DNA from: Candidatus Iainarchaeum sp.
Lineage (GTDB): Archaea > Iainarchaeota > Iainarchaeia > Iainarchaeales > GCA-2688035
Reading direction: 5' to 3'
Assembly (NCBI GenBank): GCA_017610205.1
Contig: JAFCCL010000001.1
Coordinates: forward strand, 157,199-221,198
Length of the DNA: 64,000 nucleotides
Shown here piece by piece: positions 7,312 to 46,122 of the stretch. A program made the translations under genes and the position numbers. Every line of letters starts with the position of its first letter. Position 1 is the first letter of the stretch. The notes beneath the pieces are model-generated. The model was not told the origin of the DNA. It searched no databases and worked only from the letters and a program-made list of their open reading frames with translations.

Positions 7312-10300
7312 TTAGTGCTTGTTTCCTAATTTTATTAAATTTCCTGTTACTCCTTCAATAAAAATCTTTCTTACACTGCCGTTCTTTTTTCTCAAAAATG
7401 TTTCGTAAACAGGAAGATAAACAAGATCCATTTTTTTAACAACAATATTTTCCCAAAGCTTTTGCATAATCTTTCCAAGTTTTTCCCTGTTAATTCCTTC
7501 CCTCATAAGACTCATAGCCTCAATGTTTAAAACAGGAATTTGTTCCAAAGATGAAAGCATTGGATGTGTTGGAGCAGGCGGAAGTTCAAGGGCTCTTGCA
7601 AGACTATAAAAGTCTGTTCCGTTTATTTTTTCTTTTAATACAAAACCCTTTTCTTCAAGGCTTTGCAGAATTCTTTTTACAAGCGAATTGCTTTCACCAA
7701 GCCCTTCAACAATTGCTGCAAATTCTTTTTTTCTGTCAAGCAACATCAAAAGCTTTAATTCATTTTTGCTTAAATTTTCAATCAATGCAAGACCATTGCT
7801 TTCAATAAACCCATTTTTTTTCCCGCTGAAATGAATAAATTCTCCGGTAATGCTGTTGACAAAGGCAACCAATTTCCTAAAAGTCTTTTTTGTATCAAAT
7901 GCATTGTATTCAACCCTGTAAATTGGCATATACCGCAACTGCATGTTTTCAATAGCTTCCTCGCTTCCAAAAATTCCCAAAAGCCGTTTTTTCCTTACCT
8001 TGTTGAACATTTGCATTGCTTTCTCTTCATTAACTGAAGCAGGAAAGGCAAGCAATTCAATGCTTTCCTCAGGAAAAACAGCTTTGGCTTCTTTTTCAAC
8101 CTCTTTTTCTGCTTCGCCAACAAGTTCTTCCGCAAGGGCTTCATCCTGTAATTCTCCAGGAATGCTTACAGTGCTGTTTTCATCATCCATTACTGCCCCT
8201 ATTTCCTCAAGCTTTTCAAGAACTTTTCCAAGTTCAACGCCTGATTTGTATTTTGCATTCAGGGTTTCAACAACCTGATTAATTGTAGAAGTTGGCAGGC
8301 TTCCAACCTGGTCAAGCTTGCTTTTTGACATTTCAACCGCCAGCAATAAAACTTTTTCGTCGTCAAGCTTTAAATTTCTTTCAACTGTTTCAGCTTCCCG
8401 TCCCTCATGCTGTGACATTCTGGGCCTTATTCTTAGTACAAATGCTCTGGTTGTTTCTTCCCTTCGGTCTCCTGTTAGGGCAATTCCCACAGGCAGTGTT
8501 TTGATAAAATTGCTTTTTTTGTACTGTTTTGGAACCATTGTCGGAACCCTTTTGTAAAATGCTTTGACGTCATCATCAAAAACAAGCTTGTGTGATATTA
8601 CTATATCAAGCTGGCTCAGAACCTTTGTATTAATTGCACTTGGTTGCTGTGTTGCAAAAACAAGAGAACATCCTGGCCGCCTTCCCTGTTTTACATACTC
8701 AATAAGGGAATTGCTTGCAGGCGTCATCACATTTCCGCTTGGAATAAGGGTGTGGGCTTCATCAATAAAAAGCCAGGTTGGAGGAACTCCAAATTCAAGC
8801 AAGTTGTCAACATTTTTCTCTTTTCCAAATCGTCCGGCACTCTCTCTTCTTGTGCTAACCTTTCTTGCAGCCAAAATCCTTCTTGCAAGAATTCCAATAA
8901 CCAATGCTGAAACATTGTCTTCAAGGAAAGAGGTGTCAATTACTGTCATTTGTCCTTCCCTGCTTAGTTCCACAAGAGGCGTTCCAAGGCTGTTAAAAAC
9001 ACCCCAGTTTTTTGCAGCATCAAACCTGCTTACAAGCGCTCTGATGCTGTCAGGCTTGTAGCCTCTTTCACCACTATTGATCTCTTCGTCTGTTTGCAGG
9101 CATCTAATAAAGTCTTCTAATGAAAACAAATCTTTTTTTGCCCTGATTTTTTTGCCGTCCTTGTTTGTATATCCTTTTTTGACCTTTTCAAGACCTTTTT
9201 CCATCAACAAACCGCTTGGACTAAATCTTTCAATTCCAAAAGTAAGACACCAATCCTCTGTTGTCAAAAGAGAAGGAGGCATGCTAAAGGTTGCGTCATA
9301 AGTTGATTTTGGAACCTGGTCTGCAACCCCTTCAGGAATAAACACTCTTAAATTTTCAAGACCCTGCGGCAACAAATCCCATTTTGCAAGCGACTCAAGT
9401 TCCCTTGTTTCCCTGTTTGGATATCGCATTCCCCAAAAAACACCAACCGGGTCAACCACAATTACTCCTACGTTTTTGTTTTTTACTGCAAGCTCTTCTG
9501 CAATTACTCCAAGGACATAGCTGTTGTGTACAATTATATCATTTGCAACAAAGTTGTGCACATTCGGTATTTCAATATCATAAACATCTGTTTCGCCTAT
9601 TATTTCTTCCACTAAAGTTATTTCGTCCCAGAAAATTTCTGATTGTGCAAGCATTTGGATGCCCTTGTTTTCATCTACTAATGCAATTTTAAGTAGTTTT
9701 TCTCTTGAGGGAGCATAGCTTATACTGCTGTGAACCCAGTTTGACTTATACTCTAAAGCTCTCGATGTCGCTTTAGCATTTTTTGGCCTATAGCAGTCCC
9801 AAACTTCTTTTGGGATTGTGTCAATGTTTGGATTTCTATTCACGCTAAAAGCTTCCTCAATCGCTTTCTCTTGCCTTAGCTCTTTTGTTCCAAAAAAGCC
9901 AATTTCTGAAATAAATTTGATTACATTTTCCCCATATAACACAACTTCGAATGTATCAAATTTCTTGCCTCTGCATTTTACTTTTTTTTCTCTCATTCTA
10001 GACATTATCCCAAATCTTAAAAGTAAATGCTGGACTTGTTTTGCCAGTTTTTTGGAAGACGAAGCATAGCAAGCTCCCCATGTTTTGCCTTTACTAATCC
10101 TATAAATGCTTCCATCACAGCTGAACATTCTGTTCAAAAACAATGCAATCTGATGCTTTTCCAGCTGCAGTACTTCTTTTGGAATAAACTTTTCTTTTGA
10201 TAACTTATTGTAGAGTCCAAGCGATTCAACAAACTGCATCAGACTGCTTTTTTGTGCAACAACAAAACCCCTGTTTGTAAACTGTCCTTTTTCATTTCTT

Positions 10301-11658
10301 ACAACATGACTTGTATCAATTTTTTTCTTTTGTTGAATTATTCTAAAACAGTCTGGATGGCTGTGAGATTTTATTTTGAGGTCCTGATCAAATTCCATAA
10401 CACTTTTTTTAAAATCTTTAACTATTTTTGGATCCTTGTTACTAAACAATACAAACTGATTGCCTAAATGTCCTTCTGCAATTAAATATGCAAGCAGCTT
10501 CACATCGCATTCTTTCATTTTTGTTTTTCCAAAATTGTTTAAAATTCGAGGAGTGGCTATTCTACTTCCTAAGCCTAATTCACCAGCCTGTTTCCATCCA
10601 TTGACGGTAAGCAAAGGGTGTTCAGGAGTAAGCTTTATTTCCTTACCTGTTCCCAGTTTAATGTTAAGTATTTTATTCACTTTCCTTTTTGAAAAAGCAA
10701 TTTTATCAACCTGTTTCACTTTGAGATTGTGGTCTAAAGCGCAAACTTTTGCACTCTCTTCTTTCAATTCCTTTATAGGAACAACACGTCCATCGCCAAG
10801 CGGAATTAATGTATCTCCATGAAGGCATTTTCCACTTCCCCTTGCACCACATACAAAAACAACGTGGGGATTAAGACTGTCAAGGTAAATATCCTTGTCA
10901 TACAAATCTTTTTCTCCAATCCTTCCAATAAAAAGCGAGGCCTCATCACCATATTTTTGAAAAACACTTTTCTTTCTTCCAATAAACGCCTTTCCGTTTT
11001 CATTCTGCAAAAACTTCAATTCAGGCTTTACAAAAGGACCATGTGGGAGCTCTTTAGCAACCTCTCCTTCTGCCATTTTTTCTCCTTCTTTTACTCCAAT
11101 TTCCTTTGTTCCAGTCTCTTTTTCAACCAAAACACTGTCCTTTTCAGGAGGAGTAATGTCCTTTTTAGCGGCTTTTACTGCCTTTGCAAACACGATTTTT
11201 TTTATTTTTTCCTTCAAAGGTCTTTCTTCAACAGCCCTAATTTTTGACCTTTTTCGGCTTTTACCTGCTGTTTTTTTGCTATCTTGCCCTGTTTTTGCCT
11301 CTTTTTTGGCATCTTTTACTGGCTTTTCCTCTTCTTTTGGCTTTTCTTCCAGTTCCTCAGGCATTTTGGGCGGAGGCGCAGGTTCCAGAGGATCGTCTTC
11401 CTCAGAATCCTCTTCTTTTGGCTTTTCTTTCCCATTTTCCTCAGAATCGCTTACTTTGTCAGAATCTGTTTCTTCTTCCGAATCTGTTTCTTTTTCAGAA
11501 TCAGACTCTTCCTCTCCTTTCACTTTGTTTTGCCCTCCAAATACTTTTGCCGGCTTTTTCTCATTCTCTGCTTTCTCAGCATCCACTGCCTTTTCAGAAT
11601 CTGCTTTTTTTGGGTCTTCTCCAAAAGCATCGTCAAACAGGTCTTTTTCTTCAGCCAT
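7312..11658 (-). CDS. HerA/FtsK-superfamily P-loop ATPase (DUF87-like) with acidic/Lys-rich N-terminal low-complexity region, an intein in the Walker A loop and a C-terminal winged-helix-like region
   Basis: Extein Walker A VFVCGARGSGK|...|SYVLGVIAEEL, Walker B WLFIDEAHTLIP, and GCSLVFATQQPSAINTKVLSQLDIVISHKL. Residues 1-200 are E/D/K/S-rich (SDSEKETDSEEETDSDKVSDSEE). Confidence 0.8.
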   Translation of the reverse strand: MAEEKDLFDDAFGEDPKKADSEKAVDAEKAENEKKPAKVFGGQNKVKGEEESDSEKETDSEEETDSDKVSDSEENGKEKPKEEDSEEDDPLEPAPPPKMPEELEEKPKEEEKPVKDAKKEAKTGQDSKKTAGKSRKRSKIRAVEERPLKEKIKKIVFAKAVKAAKKDITPPEKDSVLVEKETGTKEIGVKEGEKMAEGEVAKELPHGPFVKPELKFLQNENGKAFIGRKKSVFQKYGDEASLFIGRIGEKDLYDKDIYLDSLNPHVVFVCGARGSGKCLHGDTLIPLGDGRVVPIKELKEESAKVCALDHNLKVKQVDKIAFSKRKVNKILNIKLGTGKEIKLTPEHPLLTVNGWKQAGELGLGSRIATPRILNNFGKTKMKECDVKLLAYLIAEGHLGNQFVLFSNKDPKIVKDFKKSVMEFDQDLKIKSHSHPDCFRIIQQKKKIDTSHVVRNEKGQFTNRGFVVAQKSSLMQFVESLGLYNKLSKEKFIPKEVLQLEKHQIALFLNRMFSCDGSIYRISKGKTWGACYASSSKKLAKQVQHLLLRFGIMSRMREKKVKCRGKKFDTFEVVLYGENVIKFISEIGFFGTKELRQEKAIEEAFSVNRNPNIDTIPKEVWDCYRPKNAKATSRALEYKSNWVHSSISYAPSREKLLKIALVDENKGIQMLAQSEIFWDEITLVEEIIGETDVYDIEIPNVHNFVANDIIVHNSYVLGVIAEELAVKNKNVGVIVVDPVGVFWGMRYPNRETRELESLAKWDLLPQGLENLRVFIPEGVADQVPKSTYDATFSMPPSLLTTEDWCLTFGIERFSPSGLLMEKGLEKVKKGYTNKDGKKIRAKKDLFSLEDFIRCLQTDEEINSGERGYKPDSIRALVSRFDAAKNWGVFNSLGTPLVELSREGQMTVIDTSFLEDNVSALVIGILARRILAARKVSTRRESAGRFGKEKNVDNLLEFGVPPTWLFIDEAHTLIPSGNVMTPASNSLIEYVKQGRRPGCSLVFATQQPSAINTKVLSQLDIVISHKLVFDDDVKAFYKRVPTMVPKQYKKSNFIKTLPVGIALTGDRREETTRAFVLRIRPRMSQHEGREAETVERNLKLDDEKVLLLAVEMSKSKLDQVGSLPTSTINQVVETLNAKYKSGVELGKVLEKLEEIGAVMDDENSTVSIPGELQDEALAEELVGEAEKEVEKEAKAVFPEESIELLAFPASVNEEKAMQMFNKVRKKRLLGIFGSEEAIENMQLRYMPIYRVEYNAFDTKKTFRKLVAFVNSITGEFIHFSGKKNGFIESNGLALIENLSKNELKLLMLLDRKKEFAAIVEGLGESNSLVKRILQSLEEKGFVLKEKINGTDFYSLARALELPPAPTHPMLSSLEQIPVLNIEAMSLMREGINREKLGKIMQKLWENIVVKKMDLVYLPVYETFLRKKNGSVRKIFIEGVTGNLIKLGNKH
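9523..10827 (-). mobile_element. intein (435 aa) with LAGLIDADG homing-endonuclease domain, inserted after GARGSGK of the host ATPase
   Basis: N-terminal splice block CLHGDTLIPLGDGRVV (Cys1 codon 10825-10827). LAGLIDADG blocks LLAYLIAEGHL and FLNRMFSCDGSI. C-terminal block VYDIEIPNVHNFVANDIIVHN followed by +1 Ser (Asn codon 9523-9525). Confidence 0.9.
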
Positions 11659-21687: not shown

Positions 21688-21815
21688 AATAGTTAAAAAA
21701 ACCGCTTGGAAATAGTTTAAATACATTCCATTCCAGCTAATCTTATAGAACATTTTTTTTCCTCGAAAAATAAAGCGGCAAAAAGCAAACGCTATCTTGT
21801 CGCAAAAAAAATTAT

Positions 21816-21899
21816 GCCAACGTGGCGGAGTGGTCAAACGCGCTCGCCTTGAGAGCGAGAGTCCGAGAGGGCACGCAGGTTCAAATCCTGTCGTTGGCG
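21816..21899 (+). tRNA. tRNA-Ser(TGA), integration target
   Basis: Acceptor GCCAACG/CGTTGGC. Anticodon stem CTCGC/GCGAG with loop CTTGAGA. Long variable arm. T arm GCAGG-TTCAAAT-CCTGT. 84 nt. Confidence 0.9.
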
Positions 21900-21958
21900 T
21901 CTTTCTCCAATTCAATCGCCCTTGCCCCCTGCATTTAAATGGGTTTCGGTTGAGGGAG

Positions 21959-23164
21959 ATGAAAAGTATGAGGGAATACATTCACCCCTACAAGAAAAAC
22001 CTTGAAAGGGAAATTCAACGAATAAAGGAATCTGAGCTGCTTGGGGATAACAAGCAGTTGATTCTGAAATTCTATCAGCACAACATGGCTCAAGAGCACA
22101 GCCTTCCGAGAATGGAACGGCAAGCCTGTGTTCTAAGAAAGGTTGCCGAGTGGCAGAAAAAGGATTTCAGGCAGTTAACCAAAGAAGACTATGTGGCTTT
22201 CATTGCCTGGATGCGCGAAAAAGAATACAAAGACGGAACCATCTGGACATACAAACAAATACTTATGGTCTTTCACAAATGGCTCAACAACGGAGTAAAG
22301 CCAGAGTGCATTGCATGGTTCAAGCTCAAAAAGCTGTTCAATAATACCTTGCCAGAGAACCTAATTACGCCGGAAGAAGCCAAAAGGCTGATTAAAGGAG
22401 CGGATAAAAAGCGTGACAAGGCATTGATTGCCTCTCTTTGGGAAACAGGAGCGCGTATCGGTGAGCTTGGGTGCCTGAAAATAAGGGACGTTACCTTTGA
22501 TGAATTTGGTGGAAGAGTTCTCCTAAACGGCAAAACAGGTATGAGAAAAGTCAGAATTGTTCACAGCGCACCATACATTTTGGACTGGCTTAACGAACAC
22601 CCTTTTAGCAAGGACGTTGATGCCCCACTTTGGATTTGCTTTGGGCAAAAGACCTGTGAAAGGGTTTGCTACAACACAATAGTCAAAGTGCTTTTGATGG
22701 CAAAGGCAAGAGCAGGAATAAGCAAGCCTGTCAACCCACATCATTTCAGGCACAGCAGGGCAACATACATGGCTCAGCATCTAACAGAAGCCCAGATGAA
22801 AGAATACTTTGGATGGGGGCAGGATAGTAGAATGGCTGCACGATATGTTCACCTTTCAGGCAAGCAGGTTGACGACGCAGTTCTGAGAATGTGCGGCCTG
22901 AAGAAAAGAGAGGAAGAAAAGGATATCCTAAAGCGCGAACCTTGTCCCAGATGCAAATTCCTGAACGAAATTAACTCAGATTACTGCCAAAAATGCTGGA
23001 TTCCTCTAAGTCCACAAGCTACAAATGAAATTCAGGAAACAGAAGACAAAAGCCAAGAAAGCGTAATCAGCCTAATGAAATTGCTTGAATTAGTTGGAAA
23101 CAACCCGGGAAAAGTGCGGCAGGCACTCACAATCCTGCAACAAGACACTACAAGGAGGTTTTAG
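21959..23164 (+). CDS. int: tyrosine recombinase / integrase
   Basis: ASLWETGARIGELGCL (box I Arg), HHFRHSRATYMA (HxxR) and GW...MAARYVH (catalytic Tyr). Trimmed from the track start 21797, which reads through the tRNA. Confidence 0.9.
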   Translation: MKSMREYIHPYKKNLEREIQRIKESELLGDNKQLILKFYQHNMAQEHSLPRMERQACVLRKVAEWQKKDFRQLTKEDYVAFIAWMREKEYKDGTIWTYKQILMVFHKWLNNGVKPECIAWFKLKKLFNNTLPENLITPEEAKRLIKGADKKRDKALIASLWETGARIGELGCLKIRDVTFDEFGGRVLLNGKTGMRKVRIVHSAPYILDWLNEHPFSKDVDAPLWICFGQKTCERVCYNTIVKVLLMAKARAGISKPVNPHHFRHSRATYMAQHLTEAQMKEYFGWGQDSRMAARYVHLSGKQVDDAVLRMCGLKKREEEKDILKREPCPRCKFLNEINSDYCQKCWIPLSPQATNEIQETEDKSQESVISLMKLLELVGNNPGKVRQALTILQQDTTRRF

Positions 23165-24074: not shown

Positions 24075-24604
24075 TCTTATAACTGAATTTTGTTCAACCT
24101 GACGATTGCTTCAATCAACCCTTGCTCCAGCTTATTCAATTTACCTTCAAGGTTTTCAATTCGCTCACTCAAATTGTAAAAGCTTCTCTGCGGTGAATTA
24201 GTGCTAAACCCTATCTTTGTCAAGTCCCTCATCCTTCCTTCCCTCCAAAATTTTTTCCAACTGCTGTAGCGCAAAAACAAAGGCTTTCCCGTGCACCTGT
24301 TCAAAGTGCCGCAAGTTTCGATAACGCACAACTAACAGCACCCCCTTCTCCTTTCTTGCCCTTTTCTTTCAATTCCTTCCACTGCTTATATTTTTCAAGC
24401 AGATAACACAGTGGGGCAGCGTTGTCCTTTTTGAACTCCTCAAGCTTTGGAGCACACCCTACCTGCAAAATTGTCTGGATTCCATCCACAATCAACCACC
24501 TCAAACAGAAACCTGTTCCCAGCGTTTAAATAGGTTTTGTGAAAAAATTAAGCAGAAAGCATTGCAAGCTTTATTTAAAAATAGTTTCAAATAGGCTTAT
24601 TCTT

Positions 24605-25987
24605 ATGGCTAAGGAAGAAAGAAACTGGCATCCAAATTTCAAAAAATACATGGAAAAAATAATACAACATCCTAACTACACAGGAATGCCCGAAATTCAC
24701 AAAAAAGATGGTTCTATCCTATGGATTACTGCAGGCAAAGGCAGAATAGGCAAAGAACGCACTAAATGGTGGGACAAAAAAAGAGAAGAGCTAGGAATAG
24801 ATAAAAAAATCAAATGGATATCAGAAACAGCAAAAAAAAATCATCCAACCGGGAGAAAACCTTGCCAAATCTGTGGCGAGGAAATGGAATTGGCTTATGT
24901 TTATCCATACGTAGGCGTTCTCGCAAAAATTAATGCAATTCCAAAAATAAATGGTTTTTTTGATGTATATTATTCCATTAATGATATAATCAAAGAAGGT
25001 GCAAAGCTTGGAGGAGAAGAATTCTTCAAGGAACTGAGGAAAATATTTAAAATTCCTGCAAAAGTTAAGGATTCTGTTGAAGCATTTCAATCTTATATAA
25101 CCGAAAATTGTAAAACCAAGCTCAGTCCAGGTGCAATGAGCAACGCTCCAGACAGGCTTGATGGCTTTCACACTTACAATAAATGTTGCAGAGCAACGCA
25201 TGACACTGGAAGACATAAGTCTAACCTGCAACGTTATGTCCAAGACAGAAGAGCATATGAAAACTGGGCCGAAGGAGATTGGAAAGCCGCTGAAAGGCTG
25301 ATGGGAGAATTCCATAAACATGGTTTAAGCGCTGACCATATAGGGCCCATATCGCTTGGCTTCTGTCACCGAGCAAAGTTCCAGCCTATGAGTAGAGAAG
25401 CAAACTCTGCTAAAAACAATCGCATGTCATTGAACGATGTTCAAATCCTTCTTGCAGACGAAGCAAAAGGCCAAAAGGTTGTTTCATGGCACTCCAAATT
25501 CGTTTGGGATGCATTGAAAAGTAGAGTGAAAACAGATGCGCAAGCCAAACTTGTGAGCAGGCTAATGAGAAAAAATCTTCATCACGTGCTCAGCATTTTT
25601 GCAAAAATAAATGCCGAGGACGGGAAAGAATTCCTAATTAGGAACTTTCTACACCCAGAACATTCCTATTATGATGTAAAGTTCACTGGATTTAATCCAG
25701 AAACAGGCGGGTTTGAAAAGATGAAAAAAATCGAGGGCGATAAGAAGCAATACAAAAATAATGTTCAACGGTACATTCGCATATCGTTTGAATCACTGGG
25801 CCATTATATTGACAAAGACAATCGTGTCGTTAGCAGCTGGAACAATCTTAAAGTGGATGAGGTGCTTTCAAAAGCAGTGGCTTCATTGAAAGCAGGGAAT
25901 GAAGATACTTGCAAGGAAAACCTTTCAAATACACTGAAACTATTAGCGGAAGATGCAGTGAAAGAATTTGAATCAGAACAAGTATGA
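24605..25987 (+). CDS. candidate restriction endonuclease (zinc-ribbon CxxC + HNH/beta-beta-alpha-Me-like motif)
   Basis: CQICGEEMEL, and LSADHIGPISLGFCHRAKFQPMSREANSAKNNRMSLNDV (DH...N...N spacing). Converges on and overlaps the C5-methyltransferase gene by 15 nt. Trimmed to ATG 24605. Confidence 0.5.
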   Translation: MAKEERNWHPNFKKYMEKIIQHPNYTGMPEIHKKDGSILWITAGKGRIGKERTKWWDKKREELGIDKKIKWISETAKKNHPTGRKPCQICGEEMELAYVYPYVGVLAKINAIPKINGFFDVYYSINDIIKEGAKLGGEEFFKELRKIFKIPAKVKDSVEAFQSYITENCKTKLSPGAMSNAPDRLDGFHTYNKCCRATHDTGRHKSNLQRYVQDRRAYENWAEGDWKAAERLMGEFHKHGLSADHIGPISLGFCHRAKFQPMSREANSAKNNRMSLNDVQILLADEAKGQKVVSWHSKFVWDALKSRVKTDAQAKLVSRLMRKNLHHVLSIFAKINAEDGKEFLIRNFLHPEHSYYDVKFTGFNPETGGFEKMKKIEGDKKQYKNNVQRYIRISFESLGHYIDKDNRVVSSWNNLKVDEVLSKAVASLKAGNEDTCKENLSNTLKLLAEDAVKEFESEQV

Positions 25988-27148
25988 GGGCAGCTTCTTT
26001 TTAATACACACTTCATAAAATTGAGCAAACGTCTTTTTTCCCATCAGAAATTCTTGGTAAGGAGAATAAAGCTCGCCGTCAAACAAAACTTCCATTTCGC
26101 CACTGTTTGGCTTTAAAGCAGGCAAGCCGTAAATAGCATCCTTGACTGTTATAAATGAAGGCAAACCATCAGAGCCATCAGAAAATAGTGGCTTAGGTGA
26201 AGCCAACTTTGTTTCAGTTCTAAACCCAGTAATGAAAACTCTTCTCCTCCTCTGAGGAACACCATATTCTTCAGCCTTAAGTTTCCAAGGCTCATTAACA
26301 TGATAACCAATGCCCTCAAAAGCCTCAACTATTTCTTTAAGAGCTGCTCCTTTTCTCATAGAAAGTATGCCTGGAACATTTTCCATCACAAAAGCTTCAG
26401 GTTTTATTTTTTTGACTAAGTCAACAAAGTGAACAAAAAGGTCATTGCGTGCATCCTTTGGATTCCTCCAACCAGCATGAGAAAATCCTTGGCAGGGTGG
26501 ACCTCCAACCACTACACCAATTTTGTATTTTTTTGCTAGACTGGAAAGTCTTTCTTTATTTTTATTTTCGCGAATATCGCCTAGTATACAGAAAGCAGGA
26601 TCTATTTCAGGATTGTTTTTGAGGAATGTTTCAAAAAAGCGTTTTTCTATTTCAATGGCTCCAACAACATCAAAGCCCGCTAGTTTAAATCCTTCAGAAA
26701 AACCACCTGCACCGGAAAAAAGGTCGATTGTTTTGTCGCTATTAACATGCTTCTTGACTTCTGTTGCAACTGCTCTTGCTAAGAGTGGAGGAACAGCATT
26801 GCCTATTTGTTTAAACTGTGAAGTTTTTGCGCCATGAAAAATGAAATTGTCTTTGAATGATTGCAGTCTTGCACCTTCTCTTAGAGAAATAAGTCTGTTT
26901 TGGGAAGGGTGTATATGGCAACCGTTTCCAATTCTGTTAAAGTATGTTGAAATAGTGTAACTTGGTTTGTCATATCGTAAACGACCATAATAAGTGGTTC
27001 TGCCACCGCTTTCTCTTATTTGCTTTAAACGTTGTGAAGGAATGTGCGGAGGGATGCTTGCCCAATTTCCCCCCGGCGGGATGTGGTTAACCATCTGCAT
27101 TTCTAATTGGCTAAAGCCGGGCGTTATATGGTTATGTAGTTTTCTCAT
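25973..27148 (-). CDS. DNA (cytosine-5)-methyltransferase with circularly permuted motif order (IX-X before I-VIII)
   Basis: N-terminal RLISLREGARLQSFKDNF (IX) and QIGNAVPPLLA (X). Then DLFSGAGGFSEGF (I), GGPPCQGFS (IV), FVMENVPGIL (VI) and GVPQRRRRVFITG (VIII). Confidence 0.85.
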   Translation of the reverse strand: MRKLHNHITPGFSQLEMQMVNHIPPGGNWASIPPHIPSQRLKQIRESGGRTTYYGRLRYDKPSYTISTYFNRIGNGCHIHPSQNRLISLREGARLQSFKDNFIFHGAKTSQFKQIGNAVPPLLARAVATEVKKHVNSDKTIDLFSGAGGFSEGFKLAGFDVVGAIEIEKRFFETFLKNNPEIDPAFCILGDIRENKNKERLSSLAKKYKIGVVVGGPPCQGFSHAGWRNPKDARNDLFVHFVDLVKKIKPEAFVMENVPGILSMRKGAALKEIVEAFEGIGYHVNEPWKLKAEEYGVPQRRRRVFITGFRTETKLASPKPLFSDGSDGLPSFITVKDAIYGLPALKPNSGEMEVLFDGELYSPYQEFLMGKKTFAQFYEVCIKKKLPSYLF

Positions 27149-29099
27149 TGTAAAACAGCCTAATATAGTTAATTTCTCTAGAATTTAAACCATACTGTTT
27201 GAAAATCTCTTCCTCAAGTTTTTCATTATTTTTTGCATCTAAAAGCCCTTTTTGCGGGAGGATGATGGGCAATTCTCCTAGTTCGTAGTTACTTATATGA
27301 TTGTTGTAGTTTGATATTTTGAATCGCCAGTTCAATAATTTTGAGTTCAACAGCTTTACGAGAACCTCGTTAGAGATTCTTTTATCTTCACTCAAAAGGT
27401 AATTGCAAGAATTTGCAACAATAGTACTTTCTGGCACCATTCTAAAATTTAGTTTTTTAACTAAATCCACGTTAGCAATTTGCTGGCCGGCAATTCTCTC
27501 CTTTTGGATGTCCTCTATTTTGTTTGAACTGACTTTAGTTAGAAAGTTTTTTTGAACGAAAGCTTTTTTCGCAGTGCTTTTTATATCTTTTCCTCTAACC
27601 AAAGACAGGAGCGTTTCTCTCTCCGTTATATACTTTTTGTCCTGAGTTAGGTCTAATTCGCCTCGTTTGTTTCTGATTAGCGTAAATTCTTTTAGTTTTT
27701 TGAAAGAGTTGAGCTTTTTTAGAACAGACCATCCAACTGAATCTAACAACGGTATTTCTAATTTTGAGAAATTTTCTTTTATGTCGTTTATGTCAATCAG
27801 AACCTTTTCATCGTTTTTATTATGAAGTATTGATTCCATTTTACTTGTTTTCTCACCCTTTTTTACTTGAATTATCACTAATGATTGATTAACATTTTGA
27901 AAAAGCTGATTCTGTTCTTTGAAAAAATGCACTTTACTCAAATTACATTCAAGCAAAAGAGCTTTTCTTAAATCATAGGCACTGGAATCCCCTAGTAAAG
28001 TTGAAGGTATTATGGCTCCAATTGAACCTTGACTATTTGTTATCTTCAAGGCAATTTCTAAAAACAAACGATAATAGTTCAACATTCCTTTAGCTGAAAG
28101 AGGATATAGCTTTGAATTGTGAATAAAATTCTTTTCCTCTTCTACTCTATCCTTTTCCTGTTGATAAATTTCATTCAAGATTTTGGGCGAAATTTCTTTT
28201 GTTGATGCCGTGAAAAAATCACTTCTGTTTATTTTCAAAACTTTGTAAGGAGGATTCATAACAACCGCGTCAAATCCGCCTTGATTTTCAAAAACGTTTT
28301 TGAACGCGCTAAAGAAAGAGAATCGCTTTTTAGGGGATTTGCTTAAACCATAAATAGCGTTCCCAACAACTATCTGCTTCTGCAACTTCTTTATAGCCTC
28401 TAATCTTTGTTCTTTGGGAAATTCGTTTGCAAGTCTTAGGATTGTTATATCAACGGAAATAGAATCAATATCAGTACCATACAAGTTATTCAAAGCTTTG
28501 TCTTTATCTTTTGCTAAAGCCAGACAGGAAAGGAGGAAACGGCCAGTACCACAACCTAAGTCAATCACTTTGTTGTTCTCCACATCCTCCACAGTTTCAC
28601 TACAAATAAGATTAGAAATTTCTTTTGGAGTAAAAAATAGACCTTTTCCTTTTAGTCCTGTTTTCTTTTTCTTAATCTTTCCATTCTCAAAAAACTTTGA
28701 GTTAAACCATTGCTGTTGTTCAACCAGCGTATCCAAAACATTAGAAAAGTGGTTTTTAGTTTTTTTCTCAAGTTTATCTACAAGGAGTGAAGTAGAAGAA
28801 GAATCAAAGGTATTGAAGAGCCCTTCCTTTTTAACAAAATTCTCAAACTCAGAATATGTTTTAAATTCCATATTCCAGCTATTAAACCACCGATAAATCA
28901 AAAATTTTACAATAGTTTCATGCACCCTTCTATGCGATTCCTTAAATTTTGCTAGAATAGGCTCTTGTAAAAGCTCTTCCTGTTCCAGAGATTCTAATAA
29001 CTGCAAATCCTCAACCACCGTATTATAGATGGAAATACCGCTTTTAAATCTATCAAGAGAGAGGGTTTCCGGTGAAATATTAAAAAGTGCGGCAGTCAT
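27132..29099 (-). CDS. N6-adenine DNA methyltransferase (gamma-class, Eco57I/TaqI-like) with large target-recognition C-terminus
   Basis: GLFFTPKEISNLI (motif X), VIDLGCGTGRFLL (motif I), AVVMNPPY (motif IV). Trimmed to ATG 29099, which overlaps the upstream small ORF stop (ATGA). Confidence 0.85.
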   Translation of the reverse strand: MTAALFNISPETLSLDRFKSGISIYNTVVEDLQLLESLEQEELLQEPILAKFKESHRRVHETIVKFLIYRWFNSWNMEFKTYSEFENFVKKEGLFNTFDSSSTSLLVDKLEKKTKNHFSNVLDTLVEQQQWFNSKFFENGKIKKKKTGLKGKGLFFTPKEISNLICSETVEDVENNKVIDLGCGTGRFLLSCLALAKDKDKALNNLYGTDIDSISVDITILRLANEFPKEQRLEAIKKLQKQIVVGNAIYGLSKSPKKRFSFFSAFKNVFENQGGFDAVVMNPPYKVLKINRSDFFTASTKEISPKILNEIYQQEKDRVEEEKNFIHNSKLYPLSAKGMLNYYRLFLEIALKITNSQGSIGAIIPSTLLGDSSAYDLRKALLLECNLSKVHFFKEQNQLFQNVNQSLVIIQVKKGEKTSKMESILHNKNDEKVLIDINDIKENFSKLEIPLLDSVGWSVLKKLNSFKKLKEFTLIRNKRGELDLTQDKKYITERETLLSLVRGKDIKSTAKKAFVQKNFLTKVSSNKIEDIQKERIAGQQIANVDLVKKLNFRMVPESTIVANSCNYLLSEDKRISNEVLVKLLNSKLLNWRFKISNYNNHISNYELGELPIILPQKGLLDAKNNEKLEEEIFKQYGLNSREINYIRLFYNEKTT

Positions 29100-29305
29100 C
29101 TGACCACCGCTAAAATCTTTGTTTTTTCCCTGTTTACTTCTTCTTCGAGAAGTTGATTGAGTTTGGCTGCAAGCTCTGCCTTGCATTCAACTAAGTCGTC
29201 TGACTCGTCAAGCTCAACAGAAGCTCCGAGGCAGATACCTTTAGTTTCGTAGTTCCCAAGATTCACTTTCTGGGAAAGGTTCATGGAAAGGCTTCTCACA
29301 TTCAT
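29096..29305 (-). CDS. small hypothetical protein, first gene of the methyltransferase operon
   Basis: 69-aa ORF whose stop overlaps the N6-MTase ATG by 4 nt. No known motif. Confidence 0.45.
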   Translation of the reverse strand: MNVRSLSMNLSQKVNLGNYETKGICLGASVELDESDDLVECKAELAAKLNQLLEEEVNREKTKILAVVR

Positions 29306-41626: not shown

Positions 41627-42305
41627 TTATGGCAAGCTTTCGCAGGCTATTCCATCATTGTCGCCATCTAGCCAATGAACATCGTTTGCTGTTCCACCAC
41701 AGGCCACAAATACTGCTTGTGCTTCTGCTCGTGTCCTAAAATCACTGCAATTGTAAGCGTTGTATGAGCAAATATAAGTTGGGCTATTGGTTTTTGGTGT
41801 TTCTTCGGCTTCCCAGATTCCAATATTTAGAACTTTGGCTTCTGTTTCCATTTCTTCTAAATCATTACACAATTTTGTATCAGGAGGAAAGCGGTACACT
41901 CTACCAAAACCATTTTTTTACGAGTTCACCATTCACAAACAAGTCTTCAAGATAAACATATCTCAAAAGCCTGCCATACATATCAATTTCGCTTACGTCT
42001 TTTTCAAGCAGAACGCTTTTGCCTAAAACCAAACTGGTAAGATAGTCTTTTGCTTCTTGGTAGCCTGCTTCGCCCTGCTCAGGAGTATCAATGCATATCA
42101 GCCTTACCCTTTCATCCGTATTTAGCACTATTGTGTCGCCATCAATTATTCGAGAAACTATGAGTTCCAGTGGAATTACTGGGTTTTCTTTCTCAACAGG
42201 TTTTTCTTCTACAGGACGCTCTTCAGTTGTTTTCTCTTCACCTTCTGAAACCCCTTGTTCTTCTTCATTTGACGGTTGCTCTCCAGGCACAATAAAAGTT
42301 TTCAA
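41627..42305 (-). pseudogene. thermonuclease (SNase) fused to Excalibur Ca-binding domain, frameshifted in an A7 run
   Basis: IIDGDTIVLNTDERVRLICIDTPE...MYGRLLRYVYL...[10 protein letters not shown]. Removing one A from the run (T7 at 41913-41919 on +) gives [15 protein letters not shown]...[10 protein letters not shown], then [16 protein letters not shown]...[13 protein letters not shown]. Confidence 0.75.
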
Positions 42306-43158: not shown

Positions 43159-43671
43159 ATGGAGCAGCAAGCTCTTGAACTGAAAAAGATATTTAATGGA
43201 GTAATTGACAGCTTTGGATTAAACCACGCACGCGTATACTATACTCTGCTGTCAAGTGAAGTTAAAACCGCAAAACAATTGATTGAAACAACAAACGTAA
43301 ACCAGGCAACCACTTACGCAGTACTACGTGAACTGCTTAAATGGGAGCTAATCAAGCACAGCAACACAAACCCGACAAGCTATTTTATTGACAACCCAAT
43401 GAAAACCTTTGAACAACAAGTCAAAAGAAAAGAAAAAATAATCAACACCAAACGAAAACAACTAGAAAACCTAATAGCATCAGACACAGACGAAACAGAA
43501 AAATACATAATCAAAATAGGAAAAGGGCAACAAACAAAACTCGTGAACGTGCTTACAAAAAAAGAAATCAAATACAAAGGAGAACTAATAAAAATAAAAG
43601 AATCGCTGGACAAAATGCTGAAAGAGGCGCCGGAAAAAGAAAAGAGGTACGCTTTCGCTTACTACAAATAA
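43159..43671 (+). CDS. TrmB-like winged-helix transcription regulator
   Basis: ARVYYTLLSSEVKTAKQLIETTNVNQATTYAVLRELLKWELI resembles the TrmB N-terminal HTH. Confidence 0.55.
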   Translation: MEQQALELKKIFNGVIDSFGLNHARVYYTLLSSEVKTAKQLIETTNVNQATTYAVLRELLKWELIKHSNTNPTSYFIDNPMKTFEQQVKRKEKIINTKRKQLENLIASDTDETEKYIIKIGKGQQTKLVNVLTKKEIKYKGELIKIKESLDKMLKEAPEKEKRYAFAYYK

Positions 43672-43715
43672 AATCAACTAAATGCTTATATTGATTACCT
43701 AATTATAATCTTGGG

Positions 43716-44813
43716 ATGGATATAGAAAAGCTAAAAACACTTGCCCTTAAACTTCAGGGCGAATTATTAACTTCGAGTAGAAAATATTTGTCAGATGAAA
43801 AAATATCACATACCAAATTGATAGACCTTCACGAAAATGCGCAAAAAATACTGCCGGACCATAAAACCCTTTTTGAAAGACATATAGAAACTTTAAAAGA
43901 TCCAATTCTGTATATAACAACAAAAGAAGCAGCCGATTTATGTAAAGATATTTTTGAATATGCTATTTTAGAAGACGATAAAAAGGAAAAAAGTGAAACA
44001 CTCGCTAAAGACCCACTTACTGATTTATTTGAAAAGAATAAATTAGCGGAGTTAGATTTTTCTAAATATAAAGAACTTTCAATTGCCTTTCTTGATTTAG
44101 ATAATTTCAAAAAAATAAACGACAAATACAAACATAATAAAGGCGATCTTGCACTAATACAAGTTGCCTCTGCACTAAAGGAAATTGTAGGAAAAAATCA
44201 TTGGGTTTTAAGAAACCACGGCAGTCGAGGAGATGAGTTTATAGTTGTTTTTTTAGATTTAGAGAAAGAAAAAGCATTTAGATTAATTGAAGAATGCAGA
44301 AAAAAAATAGAACACAATAAAGTTGAAAATTTCAACATAACAGTTAGCATCGGTATTGCATCATATCCTAATGATGGAAAAACTCTAAATGAGATTATAG
44401 AAAAAGCCGATGAAGCAATGTATCTTTCTAAAGAAAACGGAAGAAATTGCACGACTCTCTATGATGAAAGCATGGTAAATGAAATAGAAACTATTAATTT
44501 TAGACTTGAGGAAATTGCTAATATAAAAAATGGGGCTAAAGTCATTGTAAAAAGTTGGAAGTGTCATCAGGCTCCTAATATAACTAATTTAGAAGCAATC
44601 GAACTAAGAGACTTAGATGAAGATATCCTGTATACTAGTAGAAATAAAGGCGGAATGGCGACTATTATAACCATTGAAAAAGAAATTCGTGGCGTTGTTA
44701 GAGGGGTTAAAAGGCCACCAGGGCAAACGTTATTTGAATTAGTGGTTCAAAAAAAGCAACTAGAAGGAATTTCATCAGATCCAAAGGATTTTTTGAGTCC
44801 TTTAGTTAGATAA
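43716..44813 (+). CDS. GGDEF-domain (diguanylate-cyclase fold) protein with RGDEF motif and unknown N- and C-terminal domains
   Basis: DPLTDLFEKNKL, IAFLDLDNFKKINDKYKHNKGD, HGSRGDEFIVVF (RGDEF at 44226-44240), VSIGIASYP, and ADEAMYLSKENGRNC. Confidence 0.8.
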   Translation: MDIEKLKTLALKLQGELLTSSRKYLSDEKISHTKLIDLHENAQKILPDHKTLFERHIETLKDPILYITTKEAADLCKDIFEYAILEDDKKEKSETLAKDPLTDLFEKNKLAELDFSKYKELSIAFLDLDNFKKINDKYKHNKGDLALIQVASALKEIVGKNHWVLRNHGSRGDEFIVVFLDLEKEKAFRLIEECRKKIEHNKVENFNITVSIGIASYPNDGKTLNEIIEKADEAMYLSKENGRNCTTLYDESMVNEIETINFRLEEIANIKNGAKVIVKSWKCHQAPNITNLEAIELRDLDEDILYTSRNKGGMATIITIEKEIRGVVRGVKRPPGQTLFELVVQKKQLEGISSDPKDFLSPLVR

Positions 44814-44943: not shown

Positions 44944-44956
44944 CCTGTCGTTGGCG
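44944..44956 (+). repeat. attR-like copy of the tRNA-Ser(TGA) 3' end
   Basis: Exact 13-nt match, cctgtcgttggcg, to 21887-21899. Confidence 0.75.
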
Positions 44957-45589: not shown

Positions 45590-45823
45590 TTGAGGAAAGA
45601 ACAGTACAAAATAGTGTTGACGCGGCATGCCTTTATTAGAGCAATGCAGCGTAAGGTAAGCCCTGACTTAATTGAGGATACCCTGCAAACTGGAAAAATG
45701 AAAAAACATGGTAAAGGCAGAGTAAAGTTTGAGAAGCGTTTCAAGCAATTCGCAGTAATATGTGTTGATGAAATAACTGGAAATGTGATTAAGATTGTTA
45801 CAATTGAAAAAAAGAGGTGGTAA
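45590..45823 (+). CDS. DUF4258-like toxin candidate
   Basis: IVLTRHAFIRAMQRKVSPDLIEDTLQTG...VICVDEITGNVIKIVTI. TTG start. Followed immediately by the antitoxin-like gene. Confidence 0.5.
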   Translation: MRKEQYKIVLTRHAFIRAMQRKVSPDLIEDTLQTGKMKKHGKGRVKFEKRFKQFAVICVDEITGNVIKIVTIEKKRW

Positions 45824-45825
45824 TT

Positions 45826-46122
45826 ATGAACTGTACAAAATGTGTTGGAAAAATGGTTGAAAGAAAAGGCAGCACGCCTGAAGGGATTGAATACGCATAC
45901 TTCAAATGCAGAAAATGCGGTGAAGAAATAGTTGATATGAAGCAATTGCATTCAGTTGCCCAAAAATACAGGGAAATGAAGAAATACACTGCCAAAATCA
46001 GCAAGTGGGGCGAAAGCTTTGCAGTAAGAATACCAAAAGAACTAGTCAAACAATACAAACTAAAGCAAAACGAAGACGTAACACTTGTTCCGGAAAAGAA
46101 AGGAATAAAGATAGTGGCCTAA
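45826..46122 (+). CDS. zinc-ribbon + AbrB/SpoVT-domain antitoxin candidate
   Basis: CTKCVGKM...FKCRKCGEE (MqsA/YgiT-like ribbon), then KISKWGESFAVRIPKELVKQYKLKQNEDVTLVP (AbrB-type). SD gaggtgg is 5 nt upstream of ATG 45826. Confidence 0.6.
   Translation: MNCTKCVGKMVERKGSTPEGIEYAYFKCRKCGEEIVDMKQLHSVAQKYREMKKYTAKISKWGESFAVRIPKELVKQYKLKQNEDVTLVPEKKGIKIVA

Follow-up and report, generated by a model that had tools for sequence, protein, structure and literature searches.

A mobile-element GGDEF protein of an archaeon with a remodelled signature hairpin and a predicted new C-terminal domain shared with immune-type TIR proteins

We analyzed a 64,000-nucleotide stretch of a Candidatus Iainarchaeum sp. 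contig (JAFCCL010000001.1, assembly GCA_017610205.1, positions 157,199 to 221,198 of the forward strand; hereafter, the window), focusing on an open reading frame (ORF) at 43716..44813 (+) that encodes a three-part protein of 365 aa. An N-terminal helical domain (residues 1-95, 43716..44000 (+), delimited on the AlphaFold2 (AF2) model) is followed by a GGDEF domain with the diguanylate-cyclase fold (residues 96-250, 44001..44465 (+), assigned with Pfam and Foldseek) and by a C-terminal domain of ~114 aa, here termed C-dom (residues 252-365, 44469..44810 (+), AF2 model). The gene product is a member of the GGDEF family by profile, fold and residues, and departs from it in the canonical signature. 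The C-dom is predicted to be a new, well-folded domain without detectable relative that has been exchanged between GGDEF and immune-type TIR enzymes, and the genomic contexts of its relatives suggest that this very small family of GGDEF-fold proteins is carried mainly by archaeal mobile elements. We tentatively propose, with less than even confidence, that the gene constitutes a single-gene module of a mobile element in which the C-dom controls a GTP-using cyclase for defence or exclusion.

Profile searches placed the protein far above the cut-offs of both Pfam GGDEF (PF00990; E 1.3e-29, 103.5 bits against a cut-off of 23.8, residues 116-244) and TIGR00254 (111.8 bits, cut-off 37.4), and HMMER aligned it to many solved diguanylate cyclases. 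Foldseek searches with the AF2 model matched solved diguanylate cyclases with E-values of about 1e-9 to 1e-10 and, for stand-alone solved GGDEF domains, a target-normalised template-modelling (TM) score of ~0.7 and a root-mean-square deviation of 3.1-3.7 Å. The GGDEF fold proposed in an earlier note on this DNA, which had been made from the sequence alone, is thus borne out by profile scores and by retention of the catalytic, metal-binding and substrate-binding residues, and the motifs it had listed map to residues 99-102 (DPLT), 126-136 (LDLDNFKKIND), 171-175 (RGDEF), 211-215 (SIGIA) and 238-244 (SKENGRN).

Residue conservation was assessed on a MAFFT alignment of 105 GGDEF domains, comprising seven domains of the clade linked to the C-dom and 98 others taken from bacterial matches, from named genomes and from resident genes of this phylum. 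Residues D127, D129, K132, N135, G143, D144, R166, G172, D173, E174, F175 and K239 are invariant in the clade, and position 243 is occupied by R, K or G. We take these residues to be equivalent to those of PleD, with D127 matching D327, N135 matching N335, D144 matching D344, R166 matching R366, D173/E174 matching E370/E371, K239 matching K442 and R243 matching R446; by their roles in PleD, D127, D173 and E174 would be Mg2+ ligands, N135 and D144 would read the guanine, and K239 and R243 would stabilise the transition state. The catalytic residues D127, N135, D144, D173, E174 and K239 are invariant even in the most divergent clade members, at 0.86-1.15 substitutions per site, and the alignment shows the domain to keep every residue known to be needed for Mg2+ and GTP binding and for transition-state stabilisation.

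The main departure from the canonical pattern lies in the signature hairpin (R166-N-H-G-S-R-G-D-E-F175, 44211..44240 (+)), as defined on MAFFT and HMMER alignments. Following R166, clade members carry two to three extra residues (N167-H168-G169 here) in columns that are filled in none of the 98 other domains, and position 171, corresponding to the first signature Gly, is R, K or N in the clade against G in 97 of the 98 others, resulting in RGDEF, NGDEF and KGDEF variants. The canonical R-x-G-G-D/E-E-F accordingly reads R-NHG-SRGDEF in this protein, two to three residues longer; the same gap opens in HMMER alignments to crystal-structure sequences, and in the AF2 model strands 163-169 and 172-180 are joined by a turn at S170-R171, so that the domain lacks the canonical [G/A/S]G[D/E]EF signature on a tight β-hairpin. 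The motif had been read in the earlier note as a Gly-to-Arg variant of GG(D/E)EF. The Arg at the first Gly stands, but a simple point variant is ruled out by alignments that display an insertion plus a substitution, and RGDEF is hence better described as an extended hairpin, because two to three residues are inserted after R166 as well. The domain also has no I-site for feedback, since the Asp of the RxxD motif, present in 78 of the 98 other domains, is replaced by His.

The second distinguishing trait of the protein is its C-terminal domain. An AF2 model of the C-dom built on 12 sequences reached a predicted local distance difference test (pLDDT) score of 92.5 and a predicted TM score (pTM) of 0.85, depicting approximately six β-strands and two short C-terminal helices. 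This confident β-domain was compared by Foldseek with the PDB (best E 0.05, TM at most 0.26) and BFVD (best E 0.011 at TM 0.22; best TM 0.37); neither search yielded a match at E <= 0.001, and assignment to any known fold in them was rejected on this basis. The C-dom sequence had no match in Pfam, PADLOC, PHROGs or a PDB sequence profile search. Identification as PilZ was discarded for want of a Pfam match and of the RxxxR motif on reading the sequence, and identification as DUF1883 on an hhalign probability of 0.2%. In agreement with the description of both flanking regions as family-less in the earlier note, neither residues 1-95 nor residues 250-365 are matched by any Pfam, NCBIfam, PHROGs or PADLOC model.

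To define its distribution, the C-dom was searched with phmmer in a full pass over 1.84 billion (1.84e9) representative proteins. It was detected in only nine clusters, comprising five GGDEF fusions, one remnant of 89 aa and three TIR fusions. Sequence comparison shows that, outside the GGDEF clade and the 89-aa remnant, the putative domain occurs only at the C-terminus of ThsB/PDC-S66-type TIR proteins. These TIR-C-dom proteins are 270-275 aa long and begin with a TIR domain that makes up their N-terminal half (Pfam TIR_2, 64-73 bits) and matches PADLOC PDC-S66 at 197 bits and ThsB at 124 bits. The TIR subfamily is large, and its bacterial members are fused to DUF1883. In Natronomonas marina and Halorarius halobius, the annotated TIR-C-dom genes are plasmid-borne; no haloarchaeal GGDEF-C-dom fusion was found among the 1.84e9 representatives, and a tblastn search of plasmids with the haloarchaeal C-dom returned TIR fusions only.

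Several observations concern decayed copies and the TIR subfamily. On the Salinigranum rubrum plasmid NZ_CP026311.1 (L117:5393-6216), TIR and C-dom are encoded by two overlapping ORFs (WP_103428113.1 and WP_103428112.1), probably because the fusion gene has undergone a frameshift and is decaying in this copy. In the Woesearchaeota metagenome-assembled genome (MAG) contig JACPMY010000031.1 (L118:8001-8270), the 89-aa ORF holds the last 66 residues of the C-dom, with no cyclase upstream, and follows, in a chromosomal setting, a 90-aa ORF resembling a small winged-helix protein. The same TIR subfamily is also fused in haloarchaea to TATA-box-binding-protein-like PF00352 domains (P0145, P0141; e.g. 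in Salinarchaeum chitinilyticum).

Full-length relatives of the GGDEF protein (P0002-P0005 and P0121) present 45-67% identity to it, with P0002, labelled as deriving from a Nanoarchaeota MAG, at 63%. Beyond P0002, P0003, P0004, P0005, P0121/P0128 and fragments, scores fall to those of generic GGDEF-domain matches, and a scan of IMG/VR, a search of phage records and two metagenome scans returned no specific further members or contexts. On a tree of the 105 domains, the seven C-dom-linked cyclase domains group together on a long stem with an SH-aLRT support of 99, apart from the phylum's resident genes with a canonical R[WY]GG[DE]EF motif, indicating that fusion and hairpin insertion had a single origin and have been retained since. 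No sister group to this clade was resolved among bacterial and archaeal sequences, and the bacterial donor about which the earlier note had asked can therefore not be named; a scan of genome contigs for such a donor gave only generic bacterial GGDEFs at 30-43% identity. The core formed by the cyclase and the C-dom is constant across the clade despite variation at the N-terminus, which is modelled as a confident helical bundle here and in four others, and is hydrophobic and membrane-anchor-like in P0004 and Cys-rich and zinc-ribbon-like in P0122.

Four of the five gene contexts long enough to be judged are islands bearing an integrase or restriction-modification (RM) genes. P0122 immediately follows an integrase gene, with a PD-(D/E)xK-type nuclease close by, and P0121 and P0128 reside in an island with an integrase (seen in L103), GIY-YIG and AccI/Eco57I-type RM genes. 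The TIR versions are located either beside E2/E1-like genes or beside Orc1 and a transposase. In L102 (3474-4845), adjoining Prok-E2_E and ThiF (E1-like) genes, a ubiquitin-like conjugation pair as found in conflict systems, lie ~5 kb upstream of the TIR-C-dom gene. The distribution is patchy and includes decayed copies: the C-dom is present in one of 215 genomes of the phylum, the window's own, with the 66-residue Woesearchaeota remnant and the split Salinigranum copy elsewhere. A wide spread of close homologues in archaeal core genomes, which the earlier note had named as speaking against its reading, is thus not observed. A conserved partner gene was rejected because all-against-all BLAST revealed no neighbour genes shared among the window, L001 and L103-L105; Pfam searches on the neighbours were uninformative. 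The lack of a conserved neighbour suggests that the gene forms a unit by itself.

In the window, the gene occupies the end of an integrated element of ~23 kb. The last 13 nt of a tRNA-Ser(TGA) gene (21815..21901 (+); ARAGORN, Rfam) constitute attL (21887-21899) and recur as a direct repeat, attR, at 44944..44956 (+); these were the only two matches in the window, and none were obtained in 100 shuffles. With its flanks, attR matches at 15 of 16 nt, and it lies 130 nt past the stop codon of the GGDEF gene. A tyrosine recombinase gene (21968..23164 (+); best NCBIfam match recomb_XerA_Arch, 92.6 bits) begins ~65 nt past the tRNA, and other genes of the element encode an Alw26I-type RM system and a VirB4-like ATPase. 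These features support the placement of the GGDEF gene as the last cargo gene before attR of a probable tRNA-integrated archaeal element. The closest genome, of the same genus (G069), was inspected for an empty site: guaA and the tRNA-Ser gene are syntenic and no integrase is seen in the 540 nt to the contig end, a stretch too short to reveal such a site, and the flanking gene differs and has no homologue in the host genome. The host genome (1.37 Mb in 24 contigs, 92% complete) yielded no SSU rRNA; its archaeal origin is shown by a ribosomal protein L21e gene on the same contig, a family that among the control genomes gives matches only in the four archaeal ones.

The window and the corresponding tRNA gene of G069 present further features of note. 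The RM genes form a full Alw26I/Eco31I/Esp3I-type set at 24539-29186, made up of an endonuclease (403.6 bits) and two methylases, one of the cytosine-5 type and one of the adenine type. Towards the far border of the element, at 41627-42305 (-), a staphylococcal-nuclease-like gene appears to be split into two ORFs (134 aa and 90 aa), the first of which matches Pfam SNase, the PADLOC 'SNc+LTD' model and phage nuclease families. Just beyond attR (45590-46122), two ORFs with overlapping ends encode a DUF4258-like protein (77 aa) and a protein with a zinc ribbon and a MazE/AbrB-type antitoxin-like region (101 aa), and look like a putative toxin-antitoxin pair. A 1448-aa ORF at 7312-11658 (-) reads in translation as an apparent large ATPase interrupted by what resembles an intein, a block that starts with Cys, ends in VHN and precedes a Ser. 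The tRNA-Ser(TGA) ortholog of G069 (L115:545-730) contains an intron of ~97 nt after the anticodon loop, and was missed by ARAGORN in bacterial mode, whereas the window copy, used for integration, is intron-free.

Immediately upstream of the GGDEF gene, at a distance of 44 nt, lies a 170-aa ORF (43159..43671 (+)) encoding a winged-helix protein of the TrmB type, supporting the earlier annotation of a TrmB-type helix-turn-helix gene at this position (Pfam TrmB, 38.5 bits against a cut-off of 25.6, residues 22-76). The pairing of the two genes as a unit, in contrast, does not hold: the adjacency is absent from all six related loci screened, and tblastn detected no relative of the TrmB-type gene in L001 or L102-L106. 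We therefore regard it as a local neighbour outside the module that perhaps regulates its expression. Two AT-rich boxes directly 5' of the ATG (43686..43709 (+)), TTATAT (43686-43691) and TAATTATAAT (43700-43709), could constitute an archaeal TATA element of the GGDEF gene's own. Co-transcription of the two genes is also possible, as no run of five or more T separates them, and no public sequencing runs containing the stretch were found when sought as evidence of expression. The N-terminal domain is modelled as four helices (3-18, 29-45, 47-61 and 69-91; block pLDDT of 83-93 over residues 1-80), the last of which heads towards the DPLT wide turn of the cyclase domain. The region leading to the DxLT turn is the usual place of a dimerising stalk.

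The host genome encodes a single GGDEF gene, the one described here, and the inspection for turnover and receptor domains proposed in the earlier note returned no EAL, HD_5 (HD-GYP-like) or PilZ domains in this 92% complete assembly. Across the 215 genomes of this DPANN phylum, GGDEF is present in 69 and HD_5 in 17-20, with no EAL over the cut-off and no PilZ. Most of the best-scoring GGDEFs read carry R[WY]GG[DE]EF and are 26-38% identical to this domain. The abundance of GGDEF together with the HD-GYP-like genes makes some cyclic di-GMP (c-di-GMP) biology in the lineage probable; if the phylum does use c-di-GMP, it relies on HD-GYP and on receptors of types other than PilZ. The premise that GGDEF is rare or absent in Archaea hence fails for this lineage, and archaeal cyclases were published in 2026. 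Until then the use of c-di-GMP by Archaea was open. Sidorov et al. (2026) described archaeal GGDEF proteins, several from DPANN MAGs, some of which presented cyclase activity in bacterial reporter strains, and listed receptors, partners and odd catalytic motifs as open questions (PMC13725321). Their set includes two proteins with hairpins as long as the one reported here, UCD02967.1 (RYGGDKGDEF) and MBI503694.1 (RIFHPSGDEF), and two haloarchaeal GQGDEF proteins with a C-terminal domain of unknown function, GGDEF_KLK7 (on a plasmid) and GGDEF_E3; the GQGDEF proteins altered biofilm independently of the DEF residues (PMC13725321). The assays were performed in mesophilic bacterial hosts with a c-di-GMP-specific reporter, which other products would escape (PMC13725321).

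Dimerisation or oligomerisation is required for the activity of GGDEF and TIR domains alike, and the C-dom would therefore most likely sense a trigger or self-associate. By analogy, either event would switch on the attached nucleotide-consuming enzyme, and the predicted cyclase, once activated and free of product inhibition, would convert GTP to c-di-GMP or a closely related nucleotide. Given that the host has no EAL, HD-GYP-like or PilZ domains, this output might act as an alarm or as a GTP drain, helping the element to fend off or exclude viruses or rival elements rather than feeding a housekeeping c-di-GMP network. Action in conflicts between genetic elements is possible because the C-dom otherwise occurs only on immune-type TIR enzymes. 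Of the three options offered in the earlier note (an acquired cyclase, a degenerate receptor, or a messenger synthase used in defence or host interaction), the last fits best, given the sharing of the C-dom with defence-type TIRs and the location of most relatives in integrase or RM islands. A bolder version, which we deem improbable, would see in the GGDEF-C-dom proteins the first use of a true GGDEF cyclase in immunity, as single-gene modules for defence or exclusion: the C-dom would recognise an invader, whether a virus or a competing element, and drive cyclase assembly, GTP would be drained or a non-canonical nucleotide made via the longer hairpin, and the same sensor would arm the haloarchaeal TIR NADase.

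Several points weigh against a defensive module. The first signature Gly is lost and the hairpin is longer. To our knowledge, no GGDEF domain proper is an established effector or defence enzyme, and we know of no defence phenotype for any C-dom protein. PADLOC returned no match for the 365-aa protein or the C-dom, and no effector gene is conserved beside the GGDEF-C-dom gene. The P0002 gene (L001) is flanked by radA and fic/CYTH genes, and the 18 kb seen of this locus contain no integrase; a mobile-element location is, moreover, equally compatible with ordinary cargo, and the sensing or oligomerising roles of the C-dom are drawn by analogy. Lastly, UCD02967.1 and the haloarchaeal GQGDEF proteins, whose hairpin changes are comparable, showed no indication of being active cyclases when assayed in Salmonella and E. 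coli (PMC13725321).

We consider it rather unlikely that the gene is instead ordinary signalling cargo, namely an active diguanylate cyclase that reprograms the host through c-di-GMP (affecting attachment, surface structures or the element's own transfer), read by receptors of archaeal types, possibly the adjacent TrmB-type regulator or the C-dom itself. The intact catalytic and guanine-specifying residues, the frequency of GGDEF and HD-GYP-like genes in the phylum and the VirB4-type transfer module of the element are all consistent with this explanation. The host genome, however, lacks EAL, HD_5 and PilZ, the TrmB neighbour is not conserved, the clade is distinct from the resident canonical genes, and the restriction of the C-dom to defence-type TIR proteins is left unexplained. 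Precedents exist in the published archaeal GGDEF proteins with cyclase activity (PMC13725321) and in bacterial integrative and conjugative elements (ICEs), which hold diguanylate cyclases in their variable regions, once beside Fic and RM genes (PMC2791158), as may be compared with L001 and the window.

Two further explanations concern the enzyme itself. We judge it unlikely that the domain is degenerate, performing no cyclisation and acting as a sensor of GTP or another nucleotide or as a protein-interaction scaffold, as in the GGDEF domains of GdpP, LapD and CsrD. The loss of the first Gly, the insertion of two to three residues in the catalytic hairpin and a weaker second match to the GdpP-type GGDEF model (35.3 bits) point in this direction. 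Degenerate GGDEF domains, however, normally lose their metal, guanine and transition-state residues, and these are invariant in a clade diverged to ~45% identity and beyond; likewise, the protein scores far higher against the NCBIfam models of active cyclases (92-98 bits) than against those of LapD (27 bits) or CsrD (19 bits). The signature hairpin is the meeting place of two substrate-loaded domains in the PleD and WspR structures, and it is the conserved lengthening of this hairpin that defines the clade. The longer hairpin could thus yield another nucleotide (linear pppGpG, a mixed or larger cyclic oligonucleotide, or another linkage) read by a receptor on the element or in the host, but we find such altered chemistry very unlikely, since the guanine-specifying N135 and D144 are canonical, the D144 position lacks the Ser of cGAMP-making Hypr GGDEFs, and no candidate receptor gene is conserved nearby. 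The published assays bear on both explanations: archaeal GQGDEF and RYGGDKGDEF proteins had no catalytic phenotype, as a degenerate domain would predict, but the hosts were mesophilic bacteria and the c-di-GMP-specific reporter would miss other products (PMC13725321). Palm-domain relatives with altered hairpins, such as Cas10 and mCpol, do make other products in defence (PMC12657218).

The protein can be compared with several described systems. With PleD, WspR, DgcZ and DosC it shares the fold, the profile, the Mg2+, guanine and transition-state residues, the DxLT turn and an N-terminal helix leading into the domain, and it differs from them in its longer hairpin, the Arg at the first Gly and the missing RxxD I-site. 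Unlike in canonical bacterial cyclases, the C-terminal partner is a predicted new β-domain rather than EAL or HD-GYP, and the gene lies on an archaeal mobile element in a host without known turnover or receptor domains. Hairpin insertions are shared with proteins of Sidorov et al., whose MAG-derived set comes mainly from DPANN and class II archaea; going by their descriptions, UCD02967.1 and MBI503694.1 share by motif an R-x5-GDEF of the same length, and the haloarchaeal GGDEF_KLK7 (plasmid-borne) and GGDEF_E3 share the layout of a GGDEF followed by a C-terminal domain (PMC13725321). That study reports no TIR link and no mobile-element pattern for such proteins, save the plasmid location of GGDEF_KLK7 (PMC13725321). 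The DgcK and DgcL cyclases of SXT/R391 ICEs are, as described, likewise variable cargo of a conjugative-type element beside RM/Fic-type genes, but they are bacterial (Vibrio) and feed an existing host c-di-GMP network, whereas here there is no recognisable network, the hairpin is remodelled and a domain is added (PMC2791158).

Among defence systems, PADLOC PDC-S66 (DUF1883-TIR) and Thoeris ThsB represent the TIR type of the other C-dom carriers. PDC-S66, itself only a candidate system, also shares the layout of a small β-domain and an oligomerisation-dependent nucleotide-consuming enzyme in one polypeptide on mobile DNA; here GGDEF replaces TIR, and the C-dom is C-terminal and unrelated to the N-terminal DUF1883. 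As far as architecture, context and patchiness go, the protein is a candidate for such a single-gene sensor-plus-enzyme pattern. The linkage to effector or receptor genes seen in CBASS, Pycsar, type III CRISPR, Thoeris and Panoptes is not observed, with no neighbour common to the loci, and the protein is not a member of any described defence system. Cas10 of type III CRISPR and mCpol of Panoptes have in common with it a GGDEF-like palm, nucleotide signals and a modified hairpin, but they are distant, falling below this level of Pfam GGDEF, use ATP and lie beside dedicated effector genes, a partner that is not conserved here (PMC12657218).

Archaeal GGDEF proteins with activity and odd hairpins were already known (PMC13725321). 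What the present analysis adds is an archaeal GGDEF clade found mainly in mobile-element contexts rather than resident in core genomes, a conserved lengthening of the hairpin with the other catalytic residues intact that provides a natural test of the hairpin's role, and a predicted well-folded domain swapped between GGDEF and immune-type TIR enzymes. Were the gene to be ordinary cargo, it would still show the movement of c-di-GMP enzymes between archaeal genomes. If, on the other hand, the C-dom is a trigger sensor, nucleotide-based immunity would reach the one major cyclase family proper not yet tied to immunity, as well as the DPANN archaea, whose defence repertoire is poorly known, and, should the immune reading hold, the C-dom would be a new, portable immune sensor of Archaea.

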